DNA of 7,646 bases from a virus. Taxonomy: Duplodnaviria > Heunggongvirae > Uroviricota > Caudoviricetes. Positions 1 to 7,646 of the stretch are shown one piece after another. The position numbers and the translations under genes are program-made. Below the pieces are notes generated by a model. That model made no database searches, was not told the origin of the DNA, and saw only the letters and a program-made list of their open reading frames with translations. The DNA lies in the IMG/VR virus record IMGVR_UViG_2778261463_000007, positions 1 through 7,646 of that record. One strand, given 5' to 3'. The first letter of the stretch is position 1. The number at the start of each line of letters is the position of its first letter.

Positions 1-43
1 ACCGGAATTGAAGTGGTGGCCTGATGGTTACAACTAAACTGTT

Positions 44-63
44 CTGCCGACTGAGGTAAGTCG
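44..63 (-). other. 7-bp perfect inverted repeat (GCCGACT / AGTCGGC) with 6-nt loop, immediately 3' of the tRNA-like element on the minus strand; function unknown
   Basis: Read directly: plus strand gccgact-gaggta-agtcggc. No U-tract follows on either strand, so not a canonical intrinsic terminator. Confidence 0.3.
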
Positions 64-67
64 GCGC

Positions 68-144
68 TGGACCGCCAGCGGGGAATCGAACCTAGCGCAC
101 TCAACTTAAAGGGTTGACGCTCTTTCCTGATGAGCTAGTAGCGG
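68..144 (-). tRNA. Atypical tRNA-like element (possible pseudo-tRNA); anticodon triplet by position is TTT, identity uncertain
   Basis: Minus-strand read CCGCTAC-TA-GCTC-ATCAGGAAA-GAGC-G-TCAAC-CCTTTAA-GTTGA-GTGCG-CTAGG-TTCGATT-CCCCG-CTGGCGG-T-CCA. Conserved U8, A14, G18G19, canonical T-loop TTCGATT, 5-bp anticodon stem and 6/7 acceptor pairs are present. Position 33 is C instead of the near-universal U, and the T-stem has two mismatches. Starts 1 nt after the CCA of the neighbouring tRNA. Confidence 0.45.
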
Positions 145-145
145 T

Positions 146-221
146 TGGTGGCCCTTGCTGAATTTGAACCAGCGCCCTTGCGATTATGAGTCGCTCGCTC
201 TCACCACTGAGCTAAAGGGCC
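146..221 (-). tRNA. tRNA with anticodon CAT, tRNA-Ile2-like (lysidine type; anticodon-based tools would label it Met); resembles E. coli ileX and the ileZ of Stx-type phages
   Basis: Reverse complement gives GGCCCTTTAGCTCAGTGGTGAGAGCGAGCGACTCATAATCGCAAGGGCGCTGGTTCAAATTCAGCAAGGGCCACCA: 7-bp acceptor stem, D-arm GCTC/GAGC, anticodon loop CTCATAA, T-arm GCTGG-TTCAAAT-TCAGC, encoded CCA. The anticodon arm CGACTCATAATCG matches my recollection of E. coli ileX rather than elongator or initiator tRNA-Met. Confidence 0.8.
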
Positions 222-353
222 TCGAGCAGCATAATAACGTTACGGGATTAATACCGCAAATCTCAGAGAAAGCCCGACAAACCCAACTAAGCGCACCTCT
301 TATCTGGTCCGCCAAAGAGCTTAATGTCCGGTGCAGATTTTCGATGTAAAAAA

Positions 354-371
354 CCGCCTGGCTGCGGGTTT
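354..371 (-). terminator. Weak candidate intrinsic terminator (4-bp GC stem CCGC/GCGG, 6-nt loop, followed by U6 on the minus-strand RNA)
   Basis: Plus strand aaaaaa-ccgc-ctggct-gcgg-gttt; on the minus strand the hairpin is followed by six T. The stem is short, so stability is marginal. Confidence 0.25.
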
Positions 372-694
372 AAGTTGTGTGGCGTAGGAACCACTCTTAC
401 CATGATATGCATACTTTTACGATCGTAAAGTGTTTGTTCATACCCTGCATGCTGCATGATTCACCCCACAGACAATCTCTGGATTGTTGCGACGTTTGGC
501 AAGATACAATTAAAGATTATGCATTCTTCTATGCACGTATTTTTCTTCAAAAGTAATGTCTTTATTAAGGTTATATAAATAACTCATAAACCCAAATAAT
601 TAAATATATTTAGCACTTCTAATAAAAAAGATTGATCTTAATTTTCTGAGTGAAAGATAGCCATCTATTTATTAGTTTGCATGACTTCTTATTT

Positions 695-710
695 TGTGAT
701 AGTGATCACA
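695..710. promoter_or_regulatory. Perfect match to both half-sites of the CRP consensus TGTGA-N6-TCACA, upstream of the porin gene
   Basis: Read directly: tgtga-tagtga-tcaca at 695-710, about 110 bp upstream of the porin ATG at 820. Confidence 0.4.
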
Positions 711-738
711 TATAAAGAATCGGACTCCTTAATTTTCC

Positions 739-767
739 TTGTATACATTATACACAGAAATTAAATT
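739..767 (+). promoter_or_regulatory. Candidate sigma70 promoter for the porin gene (-35 TTGTAT, 17-bp spacer, -10 TAAATT)
   Basis: Hexamers read by eye with canonical spacing; each is a 4/6 match to consensus. Shine-Dalgarno GAGGA at 809-813 lies 6 nt before the ATG. If the start site is near 775, the CRP site would be centred near -72.5. Confidence 0.3.
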
Positions 768-819
768 TTCATCCTGATAGCATTTTGTCGTCCAATTAAC
801 TCCCACCAGAGGATAAAAA

Positions 820-1926
820 ATGAAAAATTTAACAGTGGCACTTTCTGCTGTAGCAGCATCAGTATTTCTGGCAACGTCTTCAAATGCAGCAGAAATATAC
901 AATAAAGATGCAAACAAAGTGGATTTATACGGTAAAGCAGTTGGTTTACATTATTTTTCTTCTGATAAGGACCAAAACGGAGATCAGACTTACGCACGCC
1001 TTGGATTCAGAGGTGAAACCCAAATAAATAATTATATTACTGGTTTTGGTCAGTGGGAATATAATTTCCAGGGGAACAACCCTGAAGGGGATGGAGCTCA
1101 AACTGGAAACAAGACTCGCCTGGCATACGCTGGTCTGAAGCTTGCAGATGCTGGCTCTCTTGATTATGGTCGTAACTACGGCGTGGTGTACGACGCATTA
1201 AGCTACACTGACGTCTTCCCGGAGTTTGGACCTACCGCAGCGCAAAAGGATAACTTCTTCGTTGGTCGTGTAGGCGGTGTTGCCACATACCGCAACACTG
1301 ACTTTTTTGGACTGGTCGATGGGCTTAGCTTTGCAATTCAGTATCTGGGAAAAAATGAACGCAAGGATAAACCAGATACTTCAAACGGAGAGGGTGTAGG
1401 TGGCTCTGTCAGCTATGAATATGAAGGATTTGGTTTTGTCGCAGCATACGGCGCTGCTGATCGTACTAAAAATCAGAAAAAGGCTGAGCTTGGTAAAGGG
1501 AAAAAAGCTGAACAGTGGGCCACCGGGGTAAAATATGACGCAAATAATCTGTACCTGGCTGCCAGTTATGGTGAAACAAATAATACCCGTGCAATATCGT
1601 ATGGTGATAATATTTCAGGAGTGGCGAATAAAACCGAAGATTTCACTGTTGTGGCACAATACCAGTTCGACTTTGGATTACGCCCGTCTCTTGCTTATAC
1701 CCACTCTAAAGCAAAAAACCTTTCATCCAGTACTGATATTAGTAAAAAACATGATGACGGATATATTGAAAAATTCGTTGAAGTAGGGGCTTCTTATTAC
1801 TTCAACAAAAATATGTCTACATACATAGATTACAAAATCAATATGCTCGATAAAAATAAATTCACTGAAAGAACAGGAGTATCAACCGACGATATTGTCG
1901 CTGTTGGTCTGGTTTATCAGTTCTGA
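820..1926 (+). CDS. General porin of the OmpC/OmpF/NmpC family (prophage-borne, NmpC/Lc-like), 368 aa, with N-terminal signal peptide
   Basis: Signal peptide [23 protein letters not shown] followed by mature N-terminus [16 protein letters not shown] typical of enterobacterial porins; PEFG loop-3 motif; C-terminus [24 protein letters not shown]...[16 protein letters not shown] ending in Phe. Strong RBS. Gene is markedly more AT-rich than the flanking phage genes. Confidence 0.95.
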
Positions 1927-1971
1927 TTTATTCTGTAAGAATATGCCGGGGGAGTGAGAACTTTTCTGGCA

Positions 1972-2000
1972 TATAAAGTGGTGCCCTCATGCCACTGCAA
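1972..2000 (-). promoter_or_regulatory. Candidate late promoter (pR'-like) downstream of Q: -35 TTGCAG, 17-bp spacer, -10 TTTATA on the minus strand
   Basis: Position matches where lambdoid Q proteins act (promoter and qut site just downstream of the Q gene); hexamers read by eye only. Confidence 0.2.
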
Positions 2001-2070
2001 AACGTTGGACAGTACTTAACTTTTCCAACGAACTTTCTGTTATTTATTAACCTTTTTGGTTTTTATACTT

Positions 2071-2097
2071 GGGCGCTTTGCGCCCATTTTTTATTTT
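2071..2097 (+). terminator. Rho-independent terminator for the porin transcript (GGGCGC-TTT-GCGCCC then A-TTTTTTATTTT)
   Basis: Perfect 6-bp GC-rich stem, 3-nt loop and a T-rich tract on the plus strand. On the minus strand no U-tract follows, so it should not terminate Q-gene transcripts. Confidence 0.7.
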
Positions 2098-2104
2098 GTA
2101 CGCC

Positions 2105-2527
2105 TTATATCCCTGCCCTAGAGGACGCAGTTTTACGACGTATCGAATAATTTGTGCTCACATATCGATCCATCTCAAGGCGAACATCTAGCATCATCAA
2201 CATACCATCAACCACTCCTTCAGCTTTTTGCAAACGCTTTCCAATATGCGTATCCGAACATCCATGTTTCATTGCTAACTTCATGAACGTCATCCCATAT
2301 ACGTAGTAATCAACCAGCATGTCATGCATATCGGCGTTGTTCTTTTTCAGGCGAGCCATACAACCACATATAATCATCGCGTCATCATCGGAACACTGCG
2401 ATCGCGATTTTACTTTTGACGGTATCAGCCCCTTAAATCCGGCGGCAATGCCTGACCATTCCACGTCTTCATGATTATTTGCGACCCATGCCCCCCAACG
2501 TTCAAGAACCATTTGAATATCACGCAT
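2105..2527 (-). CDS. Q: Late-gene antitermination protein Q (QuuD-like family)
   Basis: Translation [62 protein letters not shown]... closely resembles my recollection of E. coli DLP12 QuuD. Start placed at the ATG preceded by GGAG 8 nt upstream; the ORF track extends to a TTG at 2542. Sits last before the late region, as Q does. Confidence 0.9.
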
Positions 2528-2544
2528 CAACTTTCTCCACAAAA

Positions 2545-3540
2545 TCAGGCCAGCACACCAGTTGCCAGCGCACGATCGATAAAACGAAATATCAGCTCCA
2601 GCTGGGAGCCATACTTCACTTCAAATGCCACGGTATCCGCATGCAGCTCGTCGTGATGCTTTCTGCACAAAGGCAACACAAAGAGGTCATGCGCTTTTGT
2701 ACCCATTCCCCCCTGACCGTGACCTATCAGGTGGTGGGGATCATCAGCAGGCTTTCCACAACATGCACACGGCTGTGTCTTAACCCAGCGCGTGTACTTT
2801 TCATTAACCCAGCGGCGACGTTTTGGGCGTAACATAAAAGACTCCGGCGACTCCGGATCCACTTTCAGCGCCAGCACCTTTTTCGCTTTATCCTGGATAA
2901 TGCTGGTGGCAGGAACCGAAGGAACAAGGTCACTCTCCCGGGTGACAGACGGCACAACAGGATTCGGTAATCTCAGTGCCTTACGGGCTGCACTTTCCGG
3001 TAAGGTATCCGCCAGGTCATTACGAACCAGCCACCAGCACAGTTCCGGCATTGTCACAACATGACTATCATCAAAACCGAGATCCCGACGCACGACAGAC
3101 AACACCCAGCGAGCACAGTTATCCGTTGCCATTGATTCCAGCCGTTCCGTGAACTGATCGCACAGCTGGTTATCGCAGTGCCAGCACAGACGGATTGCAC
3201 CCGGAGCGTGTCGCATTGTGGTCATGTTCTCGCTGTGCCAGTCGGAATGAGGCCACTGGCAGCCTTTTTCACGAAGTAACCAGCTTTCAAGACATTCCAC
3301 TCCACCAGCACGACGGATTACTGCCTCATTGCGGAACACGGCCCGAACGGCAGGATCATCCGCCAGCGGTTGTGATGCCGCCGGAACGGCACCGCTGGCG
3401 AAAGATGAATAACGTTCCGGCTCAGGCTCCAGCAGGACACGCCCCTGCATAAACAGGGGCATCAGCTCTGAACCTGGCCTGAACAATACGATCCCCATAC
3501 GCGGGGCAATTTCAGGGGTCAGTAGTGCTCTCACGGTCAC
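2545..3540 (-). CDS. Cys/His-rich nin-region protein, likely DUF968 family (YdfU-like), with a C-terminal HNH-nuclease-like motif
   Basis: 331-aa ORF immediately upstream of Q. C-terminal segment [43 protein letters not shown] fits an HNH-type zinc-binding pattern; a second Cys/His cluster (CQWPHSDWH...CWHCDNQLC) lies in the middle. GTG start at 3540 or the in-frame GTG at 3534, with GAGG upstream. Confidence 0.85.
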
Positions 3541-3585
3541 CTCAGCGAACGATATTGCATGAACACAGGAGAAAAAATTCAGCCA

Positions 3586-3843
3586 TCACGCAGTAAACTC
3601 CTTCACCAGAGTTTCAAACTGGCTTACCTTGCCTTCCAGTTCCGCCACGCAATCCACCAGCTCATCCACCGCCTTTTGTGTGCGGTGTTTTGCCTGCAGC
3701 AGATCACGAAGCGCCGGAGTAAGCTGCTTGCGGAGCGTATCCTTTGCCACGCTCATTTTTTCCATCTGTTCAGCACAACGAAGCATCTCCTGCGCCTGGC
3801 GACGAAGTTGTTCCGGTGAAACAGTGGCTGTTCTGTTATTCAA
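3586..3843 (-). CDS. Hypothetical 85-aa protein, predicted helical/coiled-coil, unknown function
   Basis: ORF with TTG start overlapping the DnaB-like stop (TTGA overlap) and GGAG upstream. Sequence is heptad-like and rich in charged residues and Leu. I recognise no family. Confidence 0.6.
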   Translation of the reverse strand: MNNRTATVSPEQLRRQAQEMLRCAEQMEKMSVAKDTLRKQLTPALRDLLQAKHRTQKAVDELVDCVAELEGKVSQFETLVKEFTA

Positions 3844-5240
3844 AATAAACGCTCCGCTTTACTGCCCGACATGCGGTTATTGCTGTATCTGCGCGGATTG
3901 CCCGGCGTCATGGGTGTGGAAAGAACCTGAGCGCTTTCCTGATCCACAGGCAGAAAATGCCCGTTATGAAAACGCCGGTAAATGGTCCCGAGAGTGCCAT
4001 TACGCTGTTTCGTGATGTTGATTTCTGCTATGCCTCTGGCCTGTGTATCCGGGTTATACACCTCATCCCTGTAAAGCATCAGAATGATGTCGGCATCCGC
4101 CTCTATTTCCCCGGAATTTTTCAGATCCGAGTTCATGGGGCGTTTATTGGGTCTGGATTCCACACCACGGGAGAGCTGACTCAGTGCAATCAGCGGGAAA
4201 CCGCCGGATTTTGCCAGACTTTTAAGTCCCTTTGAGATTTCCCCCACAGCAAGGTCGTGACGCCCCGTGCTGCGGGTTTTAATCAGACCGAGGTAATCAA
4301 CCACCACCAGCGCCGTTTCCGGATGCTTCATCCGGTGGTACCTCGTGGTTGCACATATCTCATCAATGGTCAGATTTGCCTGGTCCACCATCCAGATATT
4401 ACGCCCCGTCATTCGTCCCACACCCTGTGAGAAACGTGCCCAGTCTTCGTCTTCAAAACGGGCAGCAGACTTAAGACGGGATACCGGCATTCCACCGGCA
4501 GAAGACACCATACGTTCACCAATCTGGATGTTCGCCATCTCCATGGTGAACAGAAGCACGCCATGCCCCTGCTCAGTCACCTTGTCGATGATGTCCAGCG
4601 CCAGTTCGGTTTTCCCCATCGAAGGACGAGCCGCAATGAATACCAGGTCGCCTGGCTCCATACCCCCTGTTTTTGCGTCCAGTTCATCAATACCGGTCAT
4701 CAGCGTTCTGGATTTCTCCAGTCCCTGATTCCGGCATTCAACACGGCCCACCACTTCCGGAAGGACATCATCAATGTGAACCGGCTGAATGACGCCCTTT
4801 CCGGTCGACAGTGAGGCCATCATGTTCTGCGCATCCTTCAGGGCATCCTCGGCTGCTTCGCAGGTATGTGCATCCCGTAAATTCTGTAATGCTTCGGTCA
4901 GTGTTTTTTCTGCATCGCGCAGTACGGCATTTCGCCGCAGCGCTGCAACATAGTGTTCCAGTGAAGACTTCACCCAGGTTTTGCGCCCGGTGTCGGTAAT
5001 CACCGGGGCAAGTTCCGGCATCTCATTGCACAGCAGCACGGGGTCAATGACGCCGGATACGCGGGCCTGTCTGCAAATCCCCGCGTAAATATCCCGGTAC
5101 TGACGCACGAAAAATACATCCGCCGGAAGCGTGGCCAGAATATCCATCACTTCCGGATCTGCCCCACGCAGAAAAAACGCGCCAATCACCGCACCTTCCA
5201 GGTCATCGTTACGCCATGCCGGGGTGTTCTGGCTGGTCAT
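3840..5240 (-). CDS. dnaB: DnaB-family replicative DNA helicase (phage-encoded, P22 gene 12-like)
   Basis: 466 aa; Walker A ARPSMGKTELALD, Walker B-like LVVVDYLGL, DnaB motif IALSQLSRGVESRPNKRP, DnaB-like N-terminal domain. ATG overlaps the stop of the upstream gene (ATGA) and is preceded by GGAGGTG. Confidence 0.95.
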   Translation of the reverse strand: MTSQNTPAWRNDDLEGAVIGAFFLRGADPEVMDILATLPADVFFVRQYRDIYAGICRQARVSGVIDPVLLCNEMPELAPVITDTGRKTWVKSSLEHYVAALRRNAVLRDAEKTLTEALQNLRDAHTCEAAEDALKDAQNMMASLSTGKGVIQPVHIDDVLPEVVGRVECRNQGLEKSRTLMTGIDELDAKTGGMEPGDLVFIAARPSMGKTELALDIIDKVTEQGHGVLLFTMEMANIQIGERMVSSAGGMPVSRLKSAARFEDEDWARFSQGVGRMTGRNIWMVDQANLTIDEICATTRYHRMKHPETALVVVDYLGLIKTRSTGRHDLAVGEISKGLKSLAKSGGFPLIALSQLSRGVESRPNKRPMNSDLKNSGEIEADADIILMLYRDEVYNPDTQARGIAEINITKQRNGTLGTIYRRFHNGHFLPVDQESAQVLSTPMTPGNPRRYSNNRMSGSKAERLF

Positions 5241-6124
5241 GCGGCAACACCTCCGATACGAGAACGGTAGCTGGGCCAGTTAAACGACAACCAGTTGCGC
5301 CCGCCATCGGTGATCCTGTCGGCAATCCGGGGACTGATGAACGCCCACAATTCTTCCGGTGAAAGGTTGCTGATCAAGATAGTTGGCAAAATACCCTCAT
5401 ACCGGGCATTGATAATTTCCTGCAAAATGGCCATTTCAGCCGCACTGCCAAACTGAACGCCGACTTCGTCGATGATCAGCAAATCCAGTGACGCATAATG
5501 CTCAATGACGTCATCCGCTGTTTTTTCACTGTCATTCCGCCAGCAGTTTTTCACAGCACGGGTAAGGCGCATCACGTCGGTGATCTCCACACTGGCCAGA
5601 TAGTTACGGATGATGTGTTTTGCCATTGATACCGCCAGATGATTTTTCCCGGTACCGCAACTGCCGGTCATAACAAGACTGGTACCGTTCTCCAGCATAT
5701 CTGGCCAGTTCTCCGCATAGCGGCGACAGGCCGCAAGATTTCTGGCTGCGTCAGGATTAACCTCCAGATAATTATCAAACTCGCAGTCCCGAAAACGCAG
5801 AGCAATTCCGGCGTTATCAGTCAGTTCTTCCGCCTTGAGGGACGACAGCTCCATGGTCAAATCGTTGGCCTCAGCTATCAAGCAGTCAGGGCAGCATGAA
5901 ATTTTTTCTCTATCCTCGCCATTACGATCGCTCCACACCAGAATATGTGTGTGGTATTCGCCATGTTTTTCGCAACACCCGCGCCCTTCACGCATCCAGC
6001 AGGATCGATAAGGCCATGGCTTTTCGCCATTCTGAGCAAATGCAATCTCTGCCCGTAACTCATCCATCCGCGCCTGTAGTCTTGTTTGTTGTTCACGCAG
6101 GTTAAGTGTCATCATCGCTGTCAC
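5237..6124 (-). CDS. dnaC: DnaC/IstB-like AAA+ helicase loader with an unusual N-terminal Cys-rich region
   Basis: Walker A GSCGTGKNHLA and Walker B LLIIDEVG in the C-terminal ~190 aa. The ORF track start at 6124 is GTG; a more likely start is the ATG at 6115 with GAGG 8 nt upstream. N-terminal ~90 aa contains CWMREGRGCCEKHGEYHTH...SCCPDC. Confidence 0.9.
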   Translation of the reverse strand: MTAMMTLNLREQQTRLQARMDELRAEIAFAQNGEKPWPYRSCWMREGRGCCEKHGEYHTHILVWSDRNGEDREKISCCPDCLIAEANDLTMELSSLKAEELTDNAGIALRFRDCEFDNYLEVNPDAARNLAACRRYAENWPDMLENGTSLVMTGSCGTGKNHLAVSMAKHIIRNYLASVEITDVMRLTRAVKNCWRNDSEKTADDVIEHYASLDLLIIDEVGVQFGSAAEMAILQEIINARYEGILPTILISNLSPEELWAFISPRIADRITDGGRNWLSFNWPSYRSRIGGVAA

Positions 6125-6125
6125 C

Positions 6126-7118
6126 TCAGAATGTCAATTTGTCACTGGATTTACCGAATTTGTCAGACATGGCTCCCAGGCCAGCCAGGACATCGACCTG
6201 TCGCTGTCGCCCACCTCCGGGAGCGGCTGGCTGTTGCCAGGATTCGTCAAAGTGCCGATCGGGGCCAAAGAACGTCGACGCCTGCTTCACGAACTGTGTG
6301 CCGGTATTTCCTGTAGCACGTACCCAGGCGGCATAACGTCTCACACCATCAAGCATGGTCTCCGGTTTTATTCCCTCCCTGAGACGGGCTTTCCAGGCTT
6401 TGAAGGCTGCTGACTTGGAATTGCCACCAGCACGTTTGGGATATTCCTGCCAGACCTGTTCAAATTCCGGTGAATATTCCTGTCGGGCGGAACGCGCTGG
6501 TGCAGACGCGTCAGCGGATGCGCCAATAGTGTTTTTAGTCTCCGTTGTAATCTCTGTAGTAATCTCTGTATTTGTATCAACATTCGGCGTATCCCCTGTT
6601 CCGTTATGACGTTGGGGGGTGTTCCGTTTTAACGTAATAGCTGTGTCGCTGATTGCGTTATTGCTGTTACTTTCTGGCGAAACAGAAGAAGGTGTGGTAA
6701 TGGCAGCAACTGCCTGTGGGTTGATCCCGACAAACAAAATATTGCTGCATTTCACACCATCGAGCATTTCTACGGTGCGTAAATCCAGAGTAATAAACCC
6801 TGCATCGCGAAGACGCTTCAGCGCATCTGCGGTTTCCCTTTTCCCGAAGCCAAATTGCTCAGCAAACGCCTGATAGCTTCTTTGCAGTTTGTCACCCTGA
6901 AAACGCTTGCGATATCCCAGCAAAGCCCCGGTATGCTCATCCCGGAGTTCTGTCGGGCGGTACCAGTAAACAATTTCTGAAAGCAAGGCGATAGCAGTCG
7001 CATCCGGACGACCACTGGGTAGCCGAATATGTTTCCACCAGTTCGCGGGGGTGACATTGCCGGAAATATTAATTTGACCAATAGCCATAACTTCCGGTGT
7101 AGGTGCGTAACGACTCAC
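6126..7118 (-). CDS. O: Replication initiator, lambda O-like (replisome organiser)
   Basis: 330 aa; N-terminal domain resembles initiator/replisome-organiser proteins of lambdoid phages; low-complexity linker with TEITTEITTE repeats; conserved-looking C-terminal domain. GTG start preceded by GGGAGGTG, overlapping the upstream stop. Position immediately before the helicase loader and helicase. Confidence 0.9.
   Translation of the reverse strand: MSRYAPTPEVMAIGQINISGNVTPANWWKHIRLPSGRPDATAIALLSEIVYWYRPTELRDEHTGALLGYRKRFQGDKLQRSYQAFAEQFGFGKRETADALKRLRDAGFITLDLRTVEMLDGVKCSNILFVGINPQAVAAITTPSSVSPESNSNNAISDTAITLKRNTPQRHNGTGDTPNVDTNTEITTEITTETKNTIGASADASAPARSARQEYSPEFEQVWQEYPKRAGGNSKSAAFKAWKARLREGIKPETMLDGVRRYAAWVRATGNTGTQFVKQASTFFGPDRHFDESWQQPAAPGGGRQRQVDVLAGLGAMSDKFGKSSDKLTF
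6541..6660. repeat. Direct repeats inside the O-like gene: candidate iteron-type replication origin
   Basis: Tandem GTAATCTCTGTA x2 at 6547-6570; TGTTCCGTTATGACG at 6597-6611 and TGTTCCGTTTTAACG at 6620-6634 (13/15 identical, 23 bp apart); further TTGCGTTA/TTGCTGTTA-like repeats to about 6680. Confidence 0.45.
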
Positions 7119-7339
7119 ACGGCACCTCCCAGGCGTTTAAACATTTTTCCGGACTGAAACACTGCCAGTGGATAACTCAGGGTATGAGTACGTCCCTGAA
7201 CCTGGCAGACAACCTTCTGGCTTTCTGTATTGACCAGGCAAACCCGCAGAACGTGGCCGTTGCTGGTGGTGAACCACTGCCCCACACGGGGGCAATGGTT
7301 GTATCGGTGATACCGGAAATTAACGATGTGGCGGATCAT
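7115..7339 (-). CDS. Hypothetical 74-aa protein with three Cys, immediately upstream of the O-like gene
   Basis: ATG preceded by strong GGAGGTG at correct spacing; stop overlaps the GTG start of the O-like gene. I recognise no family. Confidence 0.6.
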   Translation of the reverse strand: MIRHIVNFRYHRYNHCPRVGQWFTTSNGHVLRVCLVNTESQKVVCQVQGRTHTLSYPLAVFQSGKMFKRLGGAV

Positions 7340-7527
7340 GGACGCACCTCCGCCGTAGTTACGTATTTAACCGGGCTACCTTTCATTGAGATGGTTTCAC
7401 ACATCTCTGCCGCTTTCAGTTCTGCCGTTTTTCTGGATTTATAGCGACGGTGCCAGACAGATACATCCGTGCTAACTGATACATCGTTCTGAGAGATCCC
7501 CTCATAATTTCCCCAAAGCGTAACCAT
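7336..7527 (-). CDS. Hypothetical 63-aa protein (uncertain gene call)
   Basis: ORF whose stop overlaps the start of the 74-aa gene (ATGA), but no convincing Shine-Dalgarno precedes its ATG, and an alternative frame is open to the window edge. Confidence 0.35.
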   Translation of the reverse strand: MVTLWGNYEGISQNDVSVSTDVSVWHRRYKSRKTAELKAAEMCETISMKGSPVKYVTTAEVRP

Positions 7528-7646
7528 GTGTGAATAAATTTTGAGCTAGTAGGGTTGCAGCCACGAGTAAGTCTTCCCTTGTTATTGTGTAGCCAGAATG
7601 CCGCAAAACTTCCATGCCTAAGCGAACTGTTGAGAGTACGTTTCGA

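Follow-up and report, generated by a model that had tools for sequence, protein, structure and literature searches.

A predicted treble-clef Cys3His module in the N-terminal domain of a DnaC-type helicase loader from a phiP27/Stx-type lambdoid prophage

Introduction

The N-terminal region of DnaC/DnaI-type loaders is the helicase-binding part of these proteins and docks on the C-terminal (RecA) tier of the DnaB-family helicase. Current models of helicase loading rest on Escherichia coli DnaC, which has a zinc-free "lasso", on lambda P, and on Bacillus subtilis DnaI, which has a zinc fold of its own. The N-terminal lasso of DnaC inserts at the docking helix-linker helix (DH-LH) interface of adjacent DnaB subunits (PMC12661323). 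In DnaI, zinc is held by C67, C70, H84 and C101 (PMC2673437), and the zinc-binding N-terminal domain binds the C-terminal domain (CTD) of the helicase (PMC2673437, PMC3791466) and supplies the larger part of the helicase interface (PMC3791466, PMC1636449). Here we describe the helicase loader gene in a 7,646-nucleotide stretch of viral DNA (IMG/VR record IMGVR_UViG_2778261463_000007, positions 1 to 7,646; hereafter the window), which comes from a lambdoid prophage of E. coli, one of the phiP27/Shiga toxin (Stx)-converting type. The N-terminal domain of this loader carries four strictly conserved Cys/His residues, which we read as a structural Cys3His zinc site serving helicase docking, with a probability of about 0.6.

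Results

Conservation of the N-terminal Cys/His residues

The loader is numbered below as a protein of 292 amino acids; the first-pass annotation of the window, made from the sequence alone, counted from the longest open reading frame (ORF), which begins at 6124, and its residue numbers are larger by three. The pattern C-x7-CC-x2-H-x3-H-x-H...CC-x2-C that it had pointed out is present in full, with all nine residues in place: C39, C47, C48, H51, H55, H57, C74, C75, and C78 (C42, C50, C51, H54, H58, H60, C77, C78, and C81 in ORF numbering), encoded within the interval 5850-6124, which corresponds to ORF residues 1-92. Residues 36-80 contain all six Cys and three His of the first 100 residues, and the whole protein has 10 Cys and six His. 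When the protein was shuffled, the motif C-x2-H-x12-45-C-x2-C arose within the first 120 residues in 158 of 100,000 trials (0.16%).

Conservation across homologues, proposed by the first-pass annotation as a check, divided the nine residues into two groups. Among 117 full-length homologues, mostly around 57% identical, only C48, H51, C75, and C78 are invariant, and they remain so in 142 of 142 sequences of an alignment that reaches down to 34% identity. The corresponding motif C-x2-H-x20-27-C-x2-C is found in each of 121 further proteins of about 280 amino acids, which were retrieved with a profile of distant members. A species-level scan, with one genome per species, gave 80 loci in Gammaproteobacteria, Betaproteobacteria, Desulfobacterota and one planctomycete, 75 of them with intact genes. 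The four candidate ligand positions are kept in all 75 intact relatives: C48, C75, and C78 without exception, and H51 in 74, the remaining one having a Cys (locus L069). The C-x5-H variant of the knuckle at locus L047 and this His-to-Cys exchange are the only ligand-site variants among the intact genes, and both would be variation of the kind expected for metal ligands. A single His-to-Asn change was seen, in the frameshifted pseudogene of an endosymbiont (L052).

Decaying loader genes, with frameshifts and truncations, were encountered in insect endosymbionts (L052, from Candidatus Pantoea bathycoeliae, L046, and L042), which is consistent with relaxed selection following the death of the prophage.

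Within the N-terminal 106 residues of the 75 intact relatives, the only alignment columns at least 95% conserved are the four putative ligands and the Gly that follows the His; mean pairwise identity is 24% in this domain versus 50% in the AAA+ part. The other five Cys/His residues vary across the family, C39 being usually Trp, C47 being Thr, Ser or Ala, and H55, H57, and C74 being variable. Because C47 (to Tyr or Arg), H55 (to Arg or Asn), and C74 (to His or Arg) change even among proteins that are 82-99% identical, the nine-residue pattern is, as read from these alignments, a conserved core of four putative ligands with lineage-specific decoration.

Predicted fold and treble-clef relatives

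An AlphaFold2 model built from the single sequence was set aside for its low predicted local distance difference test score (pLDDT 42), and a model built with the 142-sequence alignment was used instead (mean pLDDT 89.8; predicted template modelling score, pTM, 0.83). In this model the 10-residue blocks over residues 11-110 score 90-97. The structure prediction that the first-pass annotation had recommended thus came out on the side of a folded region (pLDDT above 90) rather than a disordered one. The predicted N-terminal domain consists of helix a1 (residues 4-29), strands 40-48, 52-62, and 68-72, and helix a2 (residues 76-100). C48 closes the first strand and H51 precedes the second, so that this pair flanks a tight b1-b2 turn, while C75 and C78 cap the N-terminus of the 25-residue helix a2 and fall in its first turn. 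A knuckle pair, a beta-hairpin and a second pair in the first turn of a helix are the elements of a treble-clef, and the predicted ligand topology points to this fold.

The assignment is based on this predicted topology together with a profile match to DUF4379 repeats. When the N-terminal domain was compared by hhalign with DUF4379-type repeats, a match of 96.6% (E 5.6e-10) was obtained over 38 columns, including all four ligands. No Pfam family was matched by the N-terminal domain in a direct search even at E values up to 10, the Pfam DUF4379 hidden Markov model included, and the profile of the domain matched no PDB sequence at E up to 10. A word-index search with the N-terminal domain alone returned only truncated fragments (17 hits), and searches with the full-length protein and with the profile of distant members were used in its place. 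The zinc ribbon suggested by the first-pass annotation, in which knuckles of two beta-hairpins in a three-stranded sheet would carry both ligand pairs, was rejected in favour of the treble-clef, since the C75/C78 pair sits at a helix N-terminus in the model and not in a hairpin knuckle.

An exhaustive HMMER search with the N-terminal-domain profile against 1.84 billion representatives gave 35 hits. Apart from fragments and a small number of distant loaders built in the same way, these were four proteins with multiple repeats (P0154, P0158, P0159, and P0163), which were retrieved at E values of 1e-5 to 6e-4 and whose repeats are Pfam DUF4379 and DUF723. These four are the sole non-loader relatives of the zinc module found by HMMER. 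They are 190-617 amino acids long and carry two to four tandem C-x2-H-G-x-Y...G-C-P-x-C repeats, with a conserved EWFI..L...EDK helix ahead of every repeat; the three that are full-length continue into a nuclease-like C-terminal region (weak REase_MTES_1575 hit in P0154). The C-x2-H-G-x-Y...G-C-P-x-C signature of the repeats in Pfam PF05265 (DUF723) and PF14311 (DUF4379, "probable treble clef zinc finger") is also present in the loader. However, the DUF4379/DUF723 repeats occur as two to four tandem copies ahead of a nuclease-like region in phage or giant-virus proteins, whereas the loader has a single copy, flanked by two long helices and joined to an AAA+ module.

Comparison with DnaC, YdaV, and DnaI

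The AAA+ portion had been described as DnaC/IstB-type, and the profile matches and Walker motifs listed in Table 1 bear this out. The protein has an AAA+ fold closest to the initiator/loader clade with a Walker A (GxxGxGK[TN]) and a Walker B (hhhhDE) motif, and its gene lies next to those of an initiator and a DnaB-family helicase, the gene context of DnaC/DnaI/IstB-type loaders. It is predicted to be a DnaC-type AAA+ helicase loader, and helicase loading would be its activity.

Residues 45-242 of E. coli DnaC align to loader residues 87-289, with the end of helix a2 and a ...GI..RF..C.F.NY segment aligned to DnaC 45-75 (PDB 6QEL/6QEM), and the DnaC N-terminus lies outside the alignment. Ahead of the aligned part there are 44 residues in DnaC and 86 in the loader, a difference that approximates the size of the zinc-beta module. 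The first-pass annotation was correct that E. coli DnaC lacks the cluster: DnaC aligns from residue 45 only and has no Cys/His site. The same holds for Rac YdaV and the DnaC of Salmonella phage SPN3UB, which, like E. coli DnaC, have a short N-terminus (about 45-60 residues) without a Cys/His site. These three proteins resemble the loader in that their genes lie downstream of a phage or host initiator and in their role of loading a DnaB-family helicase. YdaV is a true member of PRK12377, which together with PRK07952 represents the related zinc-less loaders in NCBIfam. Orthology to E. coli DnaC (NCBIfam equivalog NF005931) was considered and rejected, as the loader scores 126.2 bits against a cut-off of 357 and aligns only through residues 88-292, to profile positions 43-243.

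Insertion of the zinc module into a DnaC-like helical hairpin is suggested by length arithmetic (86 - 40 ~ 44) and by its position. When residues 31-75 were deleted in silico and the remaining domain was compared with the N-termini of DnaC, YdaV, and SPN3UB DnaC, such an insertion was not supported beyond the last 20 residues (2.7%).

Homology to the zinc domain of B. subtilis DnaI, the sequence of which was verified against PDB 2K7R and 4M4W, was rejected as well: hhalign gave 0.6% and aligned a CxxC alone. The DnaI domain has four helices and two strands, and its ligands follow the order C67-x2-C70...H84...C101 after the four helices, whereas the loader is predicted to have a helix, three strands and a helix, with C-x2-H-x23-C-x2-C between the two helices. 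The gene arrangement is reminiscent of that in Firmicutes, with a DnaD-like initiator/co-loader, a zinc-bearing loader and a DnaB-family helicase.

Distribution of the module and its annotation

A tblastn search with the full protein against 50,697 phage records matched 325 records, 136 of them with at least 80% query coverage and a match typically starting at residue 47-48, i.e., at the first ligand. The motif was confirmed in proteins of four cultured phages, namely E. coli phage mEpX1 (gp47), Burkholderia phage BcepIL02 (gp21), Pseudomonas phage vB_Pae_U2, and a Latilactobacillus phage, the last of which was named "zinc finger protein" by its depositors. As in the loader studied here, C-x2-H...C-[PS]-x-C stands directly N-terminal to the AAA+ module in these proteins; the clades of zinc-bearing loaders differ in spacer length and in the N-terminal helix. 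Relatives occur in phages of Klebsiella, Salmonella, Pasteurellaceae, Pseudomonas, Burkholderia, and Vibrio, and the gene is found in both Stx1- and Stx2-converting phages.

In alignments to NCBIfam PRK08116, mEpX1 gp47, BcepIL02 gp21, vB_Pae_U2, and the present loader match from shortly ahead of the first ligand (profile positions 8-15), the Latilactobacillus protein from position 40, and the zinc-less YdaV from position 51. All five zinc-bearing proteins tested score 109-142 bits and do not reach the PRK08116 cut-off of 189 bits, which accounts for the generic RefSeq/Prokaryotic Genome Annotation Pipeline (PGAP) name "ATP-binding protein" of the family. The family goes unnamed in Pfam and NCBIfam, and its members are labelled "ATP-binding protein", "DNA helicase" or "transcriptional regulator". 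The GenBank records of Stx phages misname the loader (LC567818-LC567842, ON416862); the LC5678xx records label it "DNA helicase" and the true helicase "replication protein", and the record of phage ASU11 calls it "putative transcriptional regulator". Literature searches returned nothing relevant on DnaC-type loaders of proteobacteria or phages that carry a zinc site, on DUF4379, or on phiP27 replication, and the Eru papers on Stx-phage replication regions mention neither the loader nor zinc. Within the searchable literature, no description of the treble-clef Cys3His module predicted here for these loaders was found, and the module has no curated domain model. The protein family is already annotated as DnaC-like.

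Association with a phage-encoded helicase

The phage encodes its own DnaB-like helicase (Table 1), as the first-pass annotation had stated when it proposed that the loader is dedicated to this helicase. Related prophages share with the window the order initiator, loader, DnaB-like helicase. Each of the 16 genome loci with at least 47% identity has a DnaB-like gene immediately downstream, as is the case in nearly all IMG/VR contigs with at least 43% identity, so that the proposal fits the clade. It fails to explain the zinc module, which occurs without a DnaB-like gene within 5 kb at 64 of the 80 species-level loci. The replication modules of Pasteurella, Erwinia, mEpX1, and BcepIL02 consist of initiator and loader only, and that of vB_Pae_U2, whose loader is about 33% identical, has a helicase gene again. 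Given the 64 loci without a nearby helicase gene, the zinc module is a general feature of the family irrespective of the helicase partner.

Genome context and start codon

The loader gene is 99.2% identical to genes of Stx2-converting phages and 93.8% identical to that of phiP27, and is present in 283 of 5,426 complete E. coli genomes, every time on the chromosome. The minus-strand gene order in the window is replication initiator, loader, DnaB-like helicase, a small ORF, a DUF968/HNH protein, and the Q antiterminator. The order is identical at a 99.9%-identical locus of an E. coli genome, where repressor and Cro-like genes lie to one side of it and a porin gene, tRNA genes, and lysis genes to the other. 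The coordinates of the loader, its parts and its neighbours are given in Table 1.

Table 1. Positions of the loader, its predicted parts and the adjacent replication genes in the window
Feature	Positions	Strand	Basis
DnaC-type AAA+ helicase loader (predicted), 292 aa	5237..6115	-	Pfam IstB_IS21 2.9e-14; PHROG 50 "DnaC-like helicase loader" 1e-88
Loader N-terminal domain, residues 1-106	5798..6115	-	AlphaFold2; PHROG 22964 "unknown function" 1e-50
Putative zinc-binding beta module, residues 40-78, treble-clef type	5882..5998	-	Model secondary structure; hhalign to DUF4379-type repeats
Putative zinc knuckle C48-E-K-H51 (codons TGC...CAT), b1-b2 turn	5963..5974	-	Conservation
Second putative ligand pair C75-P-D-C78, N-terminus of helix a2	5882..5893	-	Conservation; helix 76-100 in model
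AAA+ ATPase module, residues 107-292, Walker A GTGKNH, Walker B LLIIDE	5237..5797	-	
DnaB-like replicative helicase of the phage	3840..5240	-	Pfam DnaB_C 2.7e-74
Replication initiator, DnaD-like C-terminal part, directly upstream of the loader	6126..7118	-	PHROG 270 "replication initiation protein" 7.6e-79; PHROG 1701 "DnaD-like helicase loader" 1.7e-39

The longest loader ORF (6124..5237, minus strand) opens at GTG 6124. Its first three residues are missing from 115 of 116 aligned homologues, and PGAP annotates a 292-aa product from the ATG equivalent to 6115 in the 99.9%-identical E. coli genome. Because the homologues and PGAP agree, the real start is almost certainly ATG 6115 and not GTG 6124, which accounts for the shift of three in the earlier residue numbers. 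A Shine-Dalgarno sequence (GAGGTG, 6127-6122) lies 6 nt upstream of this ATG, which begins 10 nt after the initiator stop codon (TGA, 6128-6126). At the other end of the gene, the stop codon of the loader overlaps the start codon of the helicase in the sequence ATGA (5240-5237), which suggests that the two genes are translationally coupled.

Neither Pfam nor NCBIfam gave a match for the initiator gene, which encodes a low-complexity linker (..TNTEITTEITTETKNT..) through short tandem DNA repeats at around 6540-6640, and beside these lie two copies of TGTTCCGTT[AT]T[GA]ACGT with a spacing of 23 nt (6597-6635). The paired TGTTCCGTT-type repeats could be origin iterons within the initiator gene, as in lambda O. 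Further along in the gene order, the DUF968 protein (2545-3540, minus strand) has a Cys/His-rich C-terminus and a weak HNHc_6 match, and judging from these features is likely a metal-binding nuclease of the HNH type. The Q antiterminator and the tRNA genes are separated by an intact OmpC/NmpC-type porin gene on the plus strand (820-1926; Porin_1, 1.8e-125), in a stretch of low GC content (29-39%); in strain LH50-c, the source of the 99.9%-identical locus, the annotation of the porin gene is that of a pseudogene interrupted by an internal stop. Two prophage tRNA genes are located at 68-221 on the minus strand. One is tRNA-Lys(UUU), and the other, with a CAU anticodon, is called Met by ARAGORN, while its RefSeq equivalent is tRNA-Ile, presumably lysidine-modified.

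Discussion

Zinc binding by C48, H51, C75, and C78 is rated very probable, given the conservation pattern, the exchange of His for Cys at one locus, and the predicted topology. With C48 and H51 placed in the hairpin turn, and C75 and C78 where helix a2 makes its first turn, the four would form one structural treble-clef Cys3His site, holding a small three-stranded beta module between the two long helices of the N-terminal domain. The module probably fixes the position of helix a2 and adds a surface for docking on the helicase; this orienting role is proposed because the C-P-x-C pair caps a helix that runs into the DnaC-homologous segment and because the N-terminal region is the helicase-binding part of such loaders. 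The docking surface would grip the helicase partner, here the phage DnaB-like helicase encoded downstream and presumably coupled to the loader in translation, and the AAA+ module would then use ATP to load the helicase at the origin that the upstream initiator marks. It is from the sequence, its conservation, the predicted fold and the gene context that we infer both the binding of zinc and the helicase as the partner.

Several points weigh against this proposal of a zinc site serving helicase docking. The ligand positions come from predicted secondary structure, and the metal geometry and the partner of the module are deduced in turn. The N-terminal helices show no similarity to the DnaC N-terminal region beyond the last 20 residues (hhalign 0.5-2.7%), and the zinc domain of DnaI is a precedent by analogy, not by detectable homology. 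In addition, the occurrence of the module in loaders that have no phage helicase means that it is not a specific adaptation to a phage-encoded helicase.

The main alternative, rated rather unlikely, is that the zinc module instead binds DNA, either single-stranded DNA or the origin, or binds the initiator encoded upstream, and so tethers the loader-helicase complex to the origin. Treble-clef fingers often bind nucleic acid, including the DUF4379 repeats ahead of the nuclease-like region, and the module persists with either a phage helicase or host DnaB as the partner, with an initiator gene always present upstream. In lambda, moreover, the loader P binds the initiator O. DnaI of B. subtilis has an N-terminal domain known to regulate access to a cryptic DNA-binding site (PMC1636449). 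However, in every characterised DnaC/DnaI loader helicase binding belongs to the N-terminal domain and DNA binding to the AAA+ module, and the adjacent initiators come from different families (DnaD-like, Phage_rep_O, and unclassified) while the zinc module is unchanged.

The remaining alternatives concern the Cys/His cluster itself. The five additional residues, C39, C47, H55, H57, and C74, might form a second metal site or a redox switch that regulates loading in the phiP27/Stx clade, where nine Cys/His fall within 40 residues as against four elsewhere, none of the 13 close variants examined has lost C39 or H57, and C47 and C74 directly flank core ligands. This is improbable: the substitutions of C47, H55, and C74 already described recur in proteins that are 82-96% identical, the largest cluster (P0018, 504 members) included, no extra set of four ligands is conserved even inside the clade, and in the rest of the family the extra positions are Trp, Thr, Ser or Ala, variable, or Gln or Arg. 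That five of the nine residues are unconserved and that the region has no Pfam model could even be taken as signs of a chance, metal-free patch of Cys and His, or of an artefact of a wrong frame or strand. A chance origin is effectively excluded by the conservation data, with four residues invariant over hundreds of homologues from several phyla in surroundings that fall to 24% identity, and the region has a confident fold prediction. The reading frame runs on into an AAA+ domain that is well supported, PGAP annotates it in the same way, and the plus-strand ORFs overlapping the region are only short and spurious.

A further reading, of low probability, concerns the history of the module. The treble-clef zinc module could be the ancestral helicase-docking element of phage DnaC-type loaders, spanning from Firmicute phages (PRK08116-like proteins and the Latilactobacillus phage) to phages of Gamma- and Betaproteobacteria, and the zinc-less N-terminus of DnaC, YdaV, and SPN3UB DnaC would then have arisen by reduction, through the loss of about 40 residues from the tip of a helical hairpin. 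Were this true, the module would set helicase-partner specificity, and loaders bearing it could either commandeer DnaB where the host uses DciA or work with a phage-encoded helicase.

The loader does not represent a new kind of system, since a zinc-dependent N-terminal domain is already known from DnaI. The treble-clef Cys3His module between two helices is predicted to be a third design of loader N-terminus, beside the zinc-free lasso of DnaC and the zinc fold of DnaI. If it is indeed the docking element, four point mutations could probe loader-helicase recognition in Stx-phage replication, and with it the amplification of the toxin gene, and the family would lend itself to comparative study of the choice that loaders make between a host and a phage helicase.

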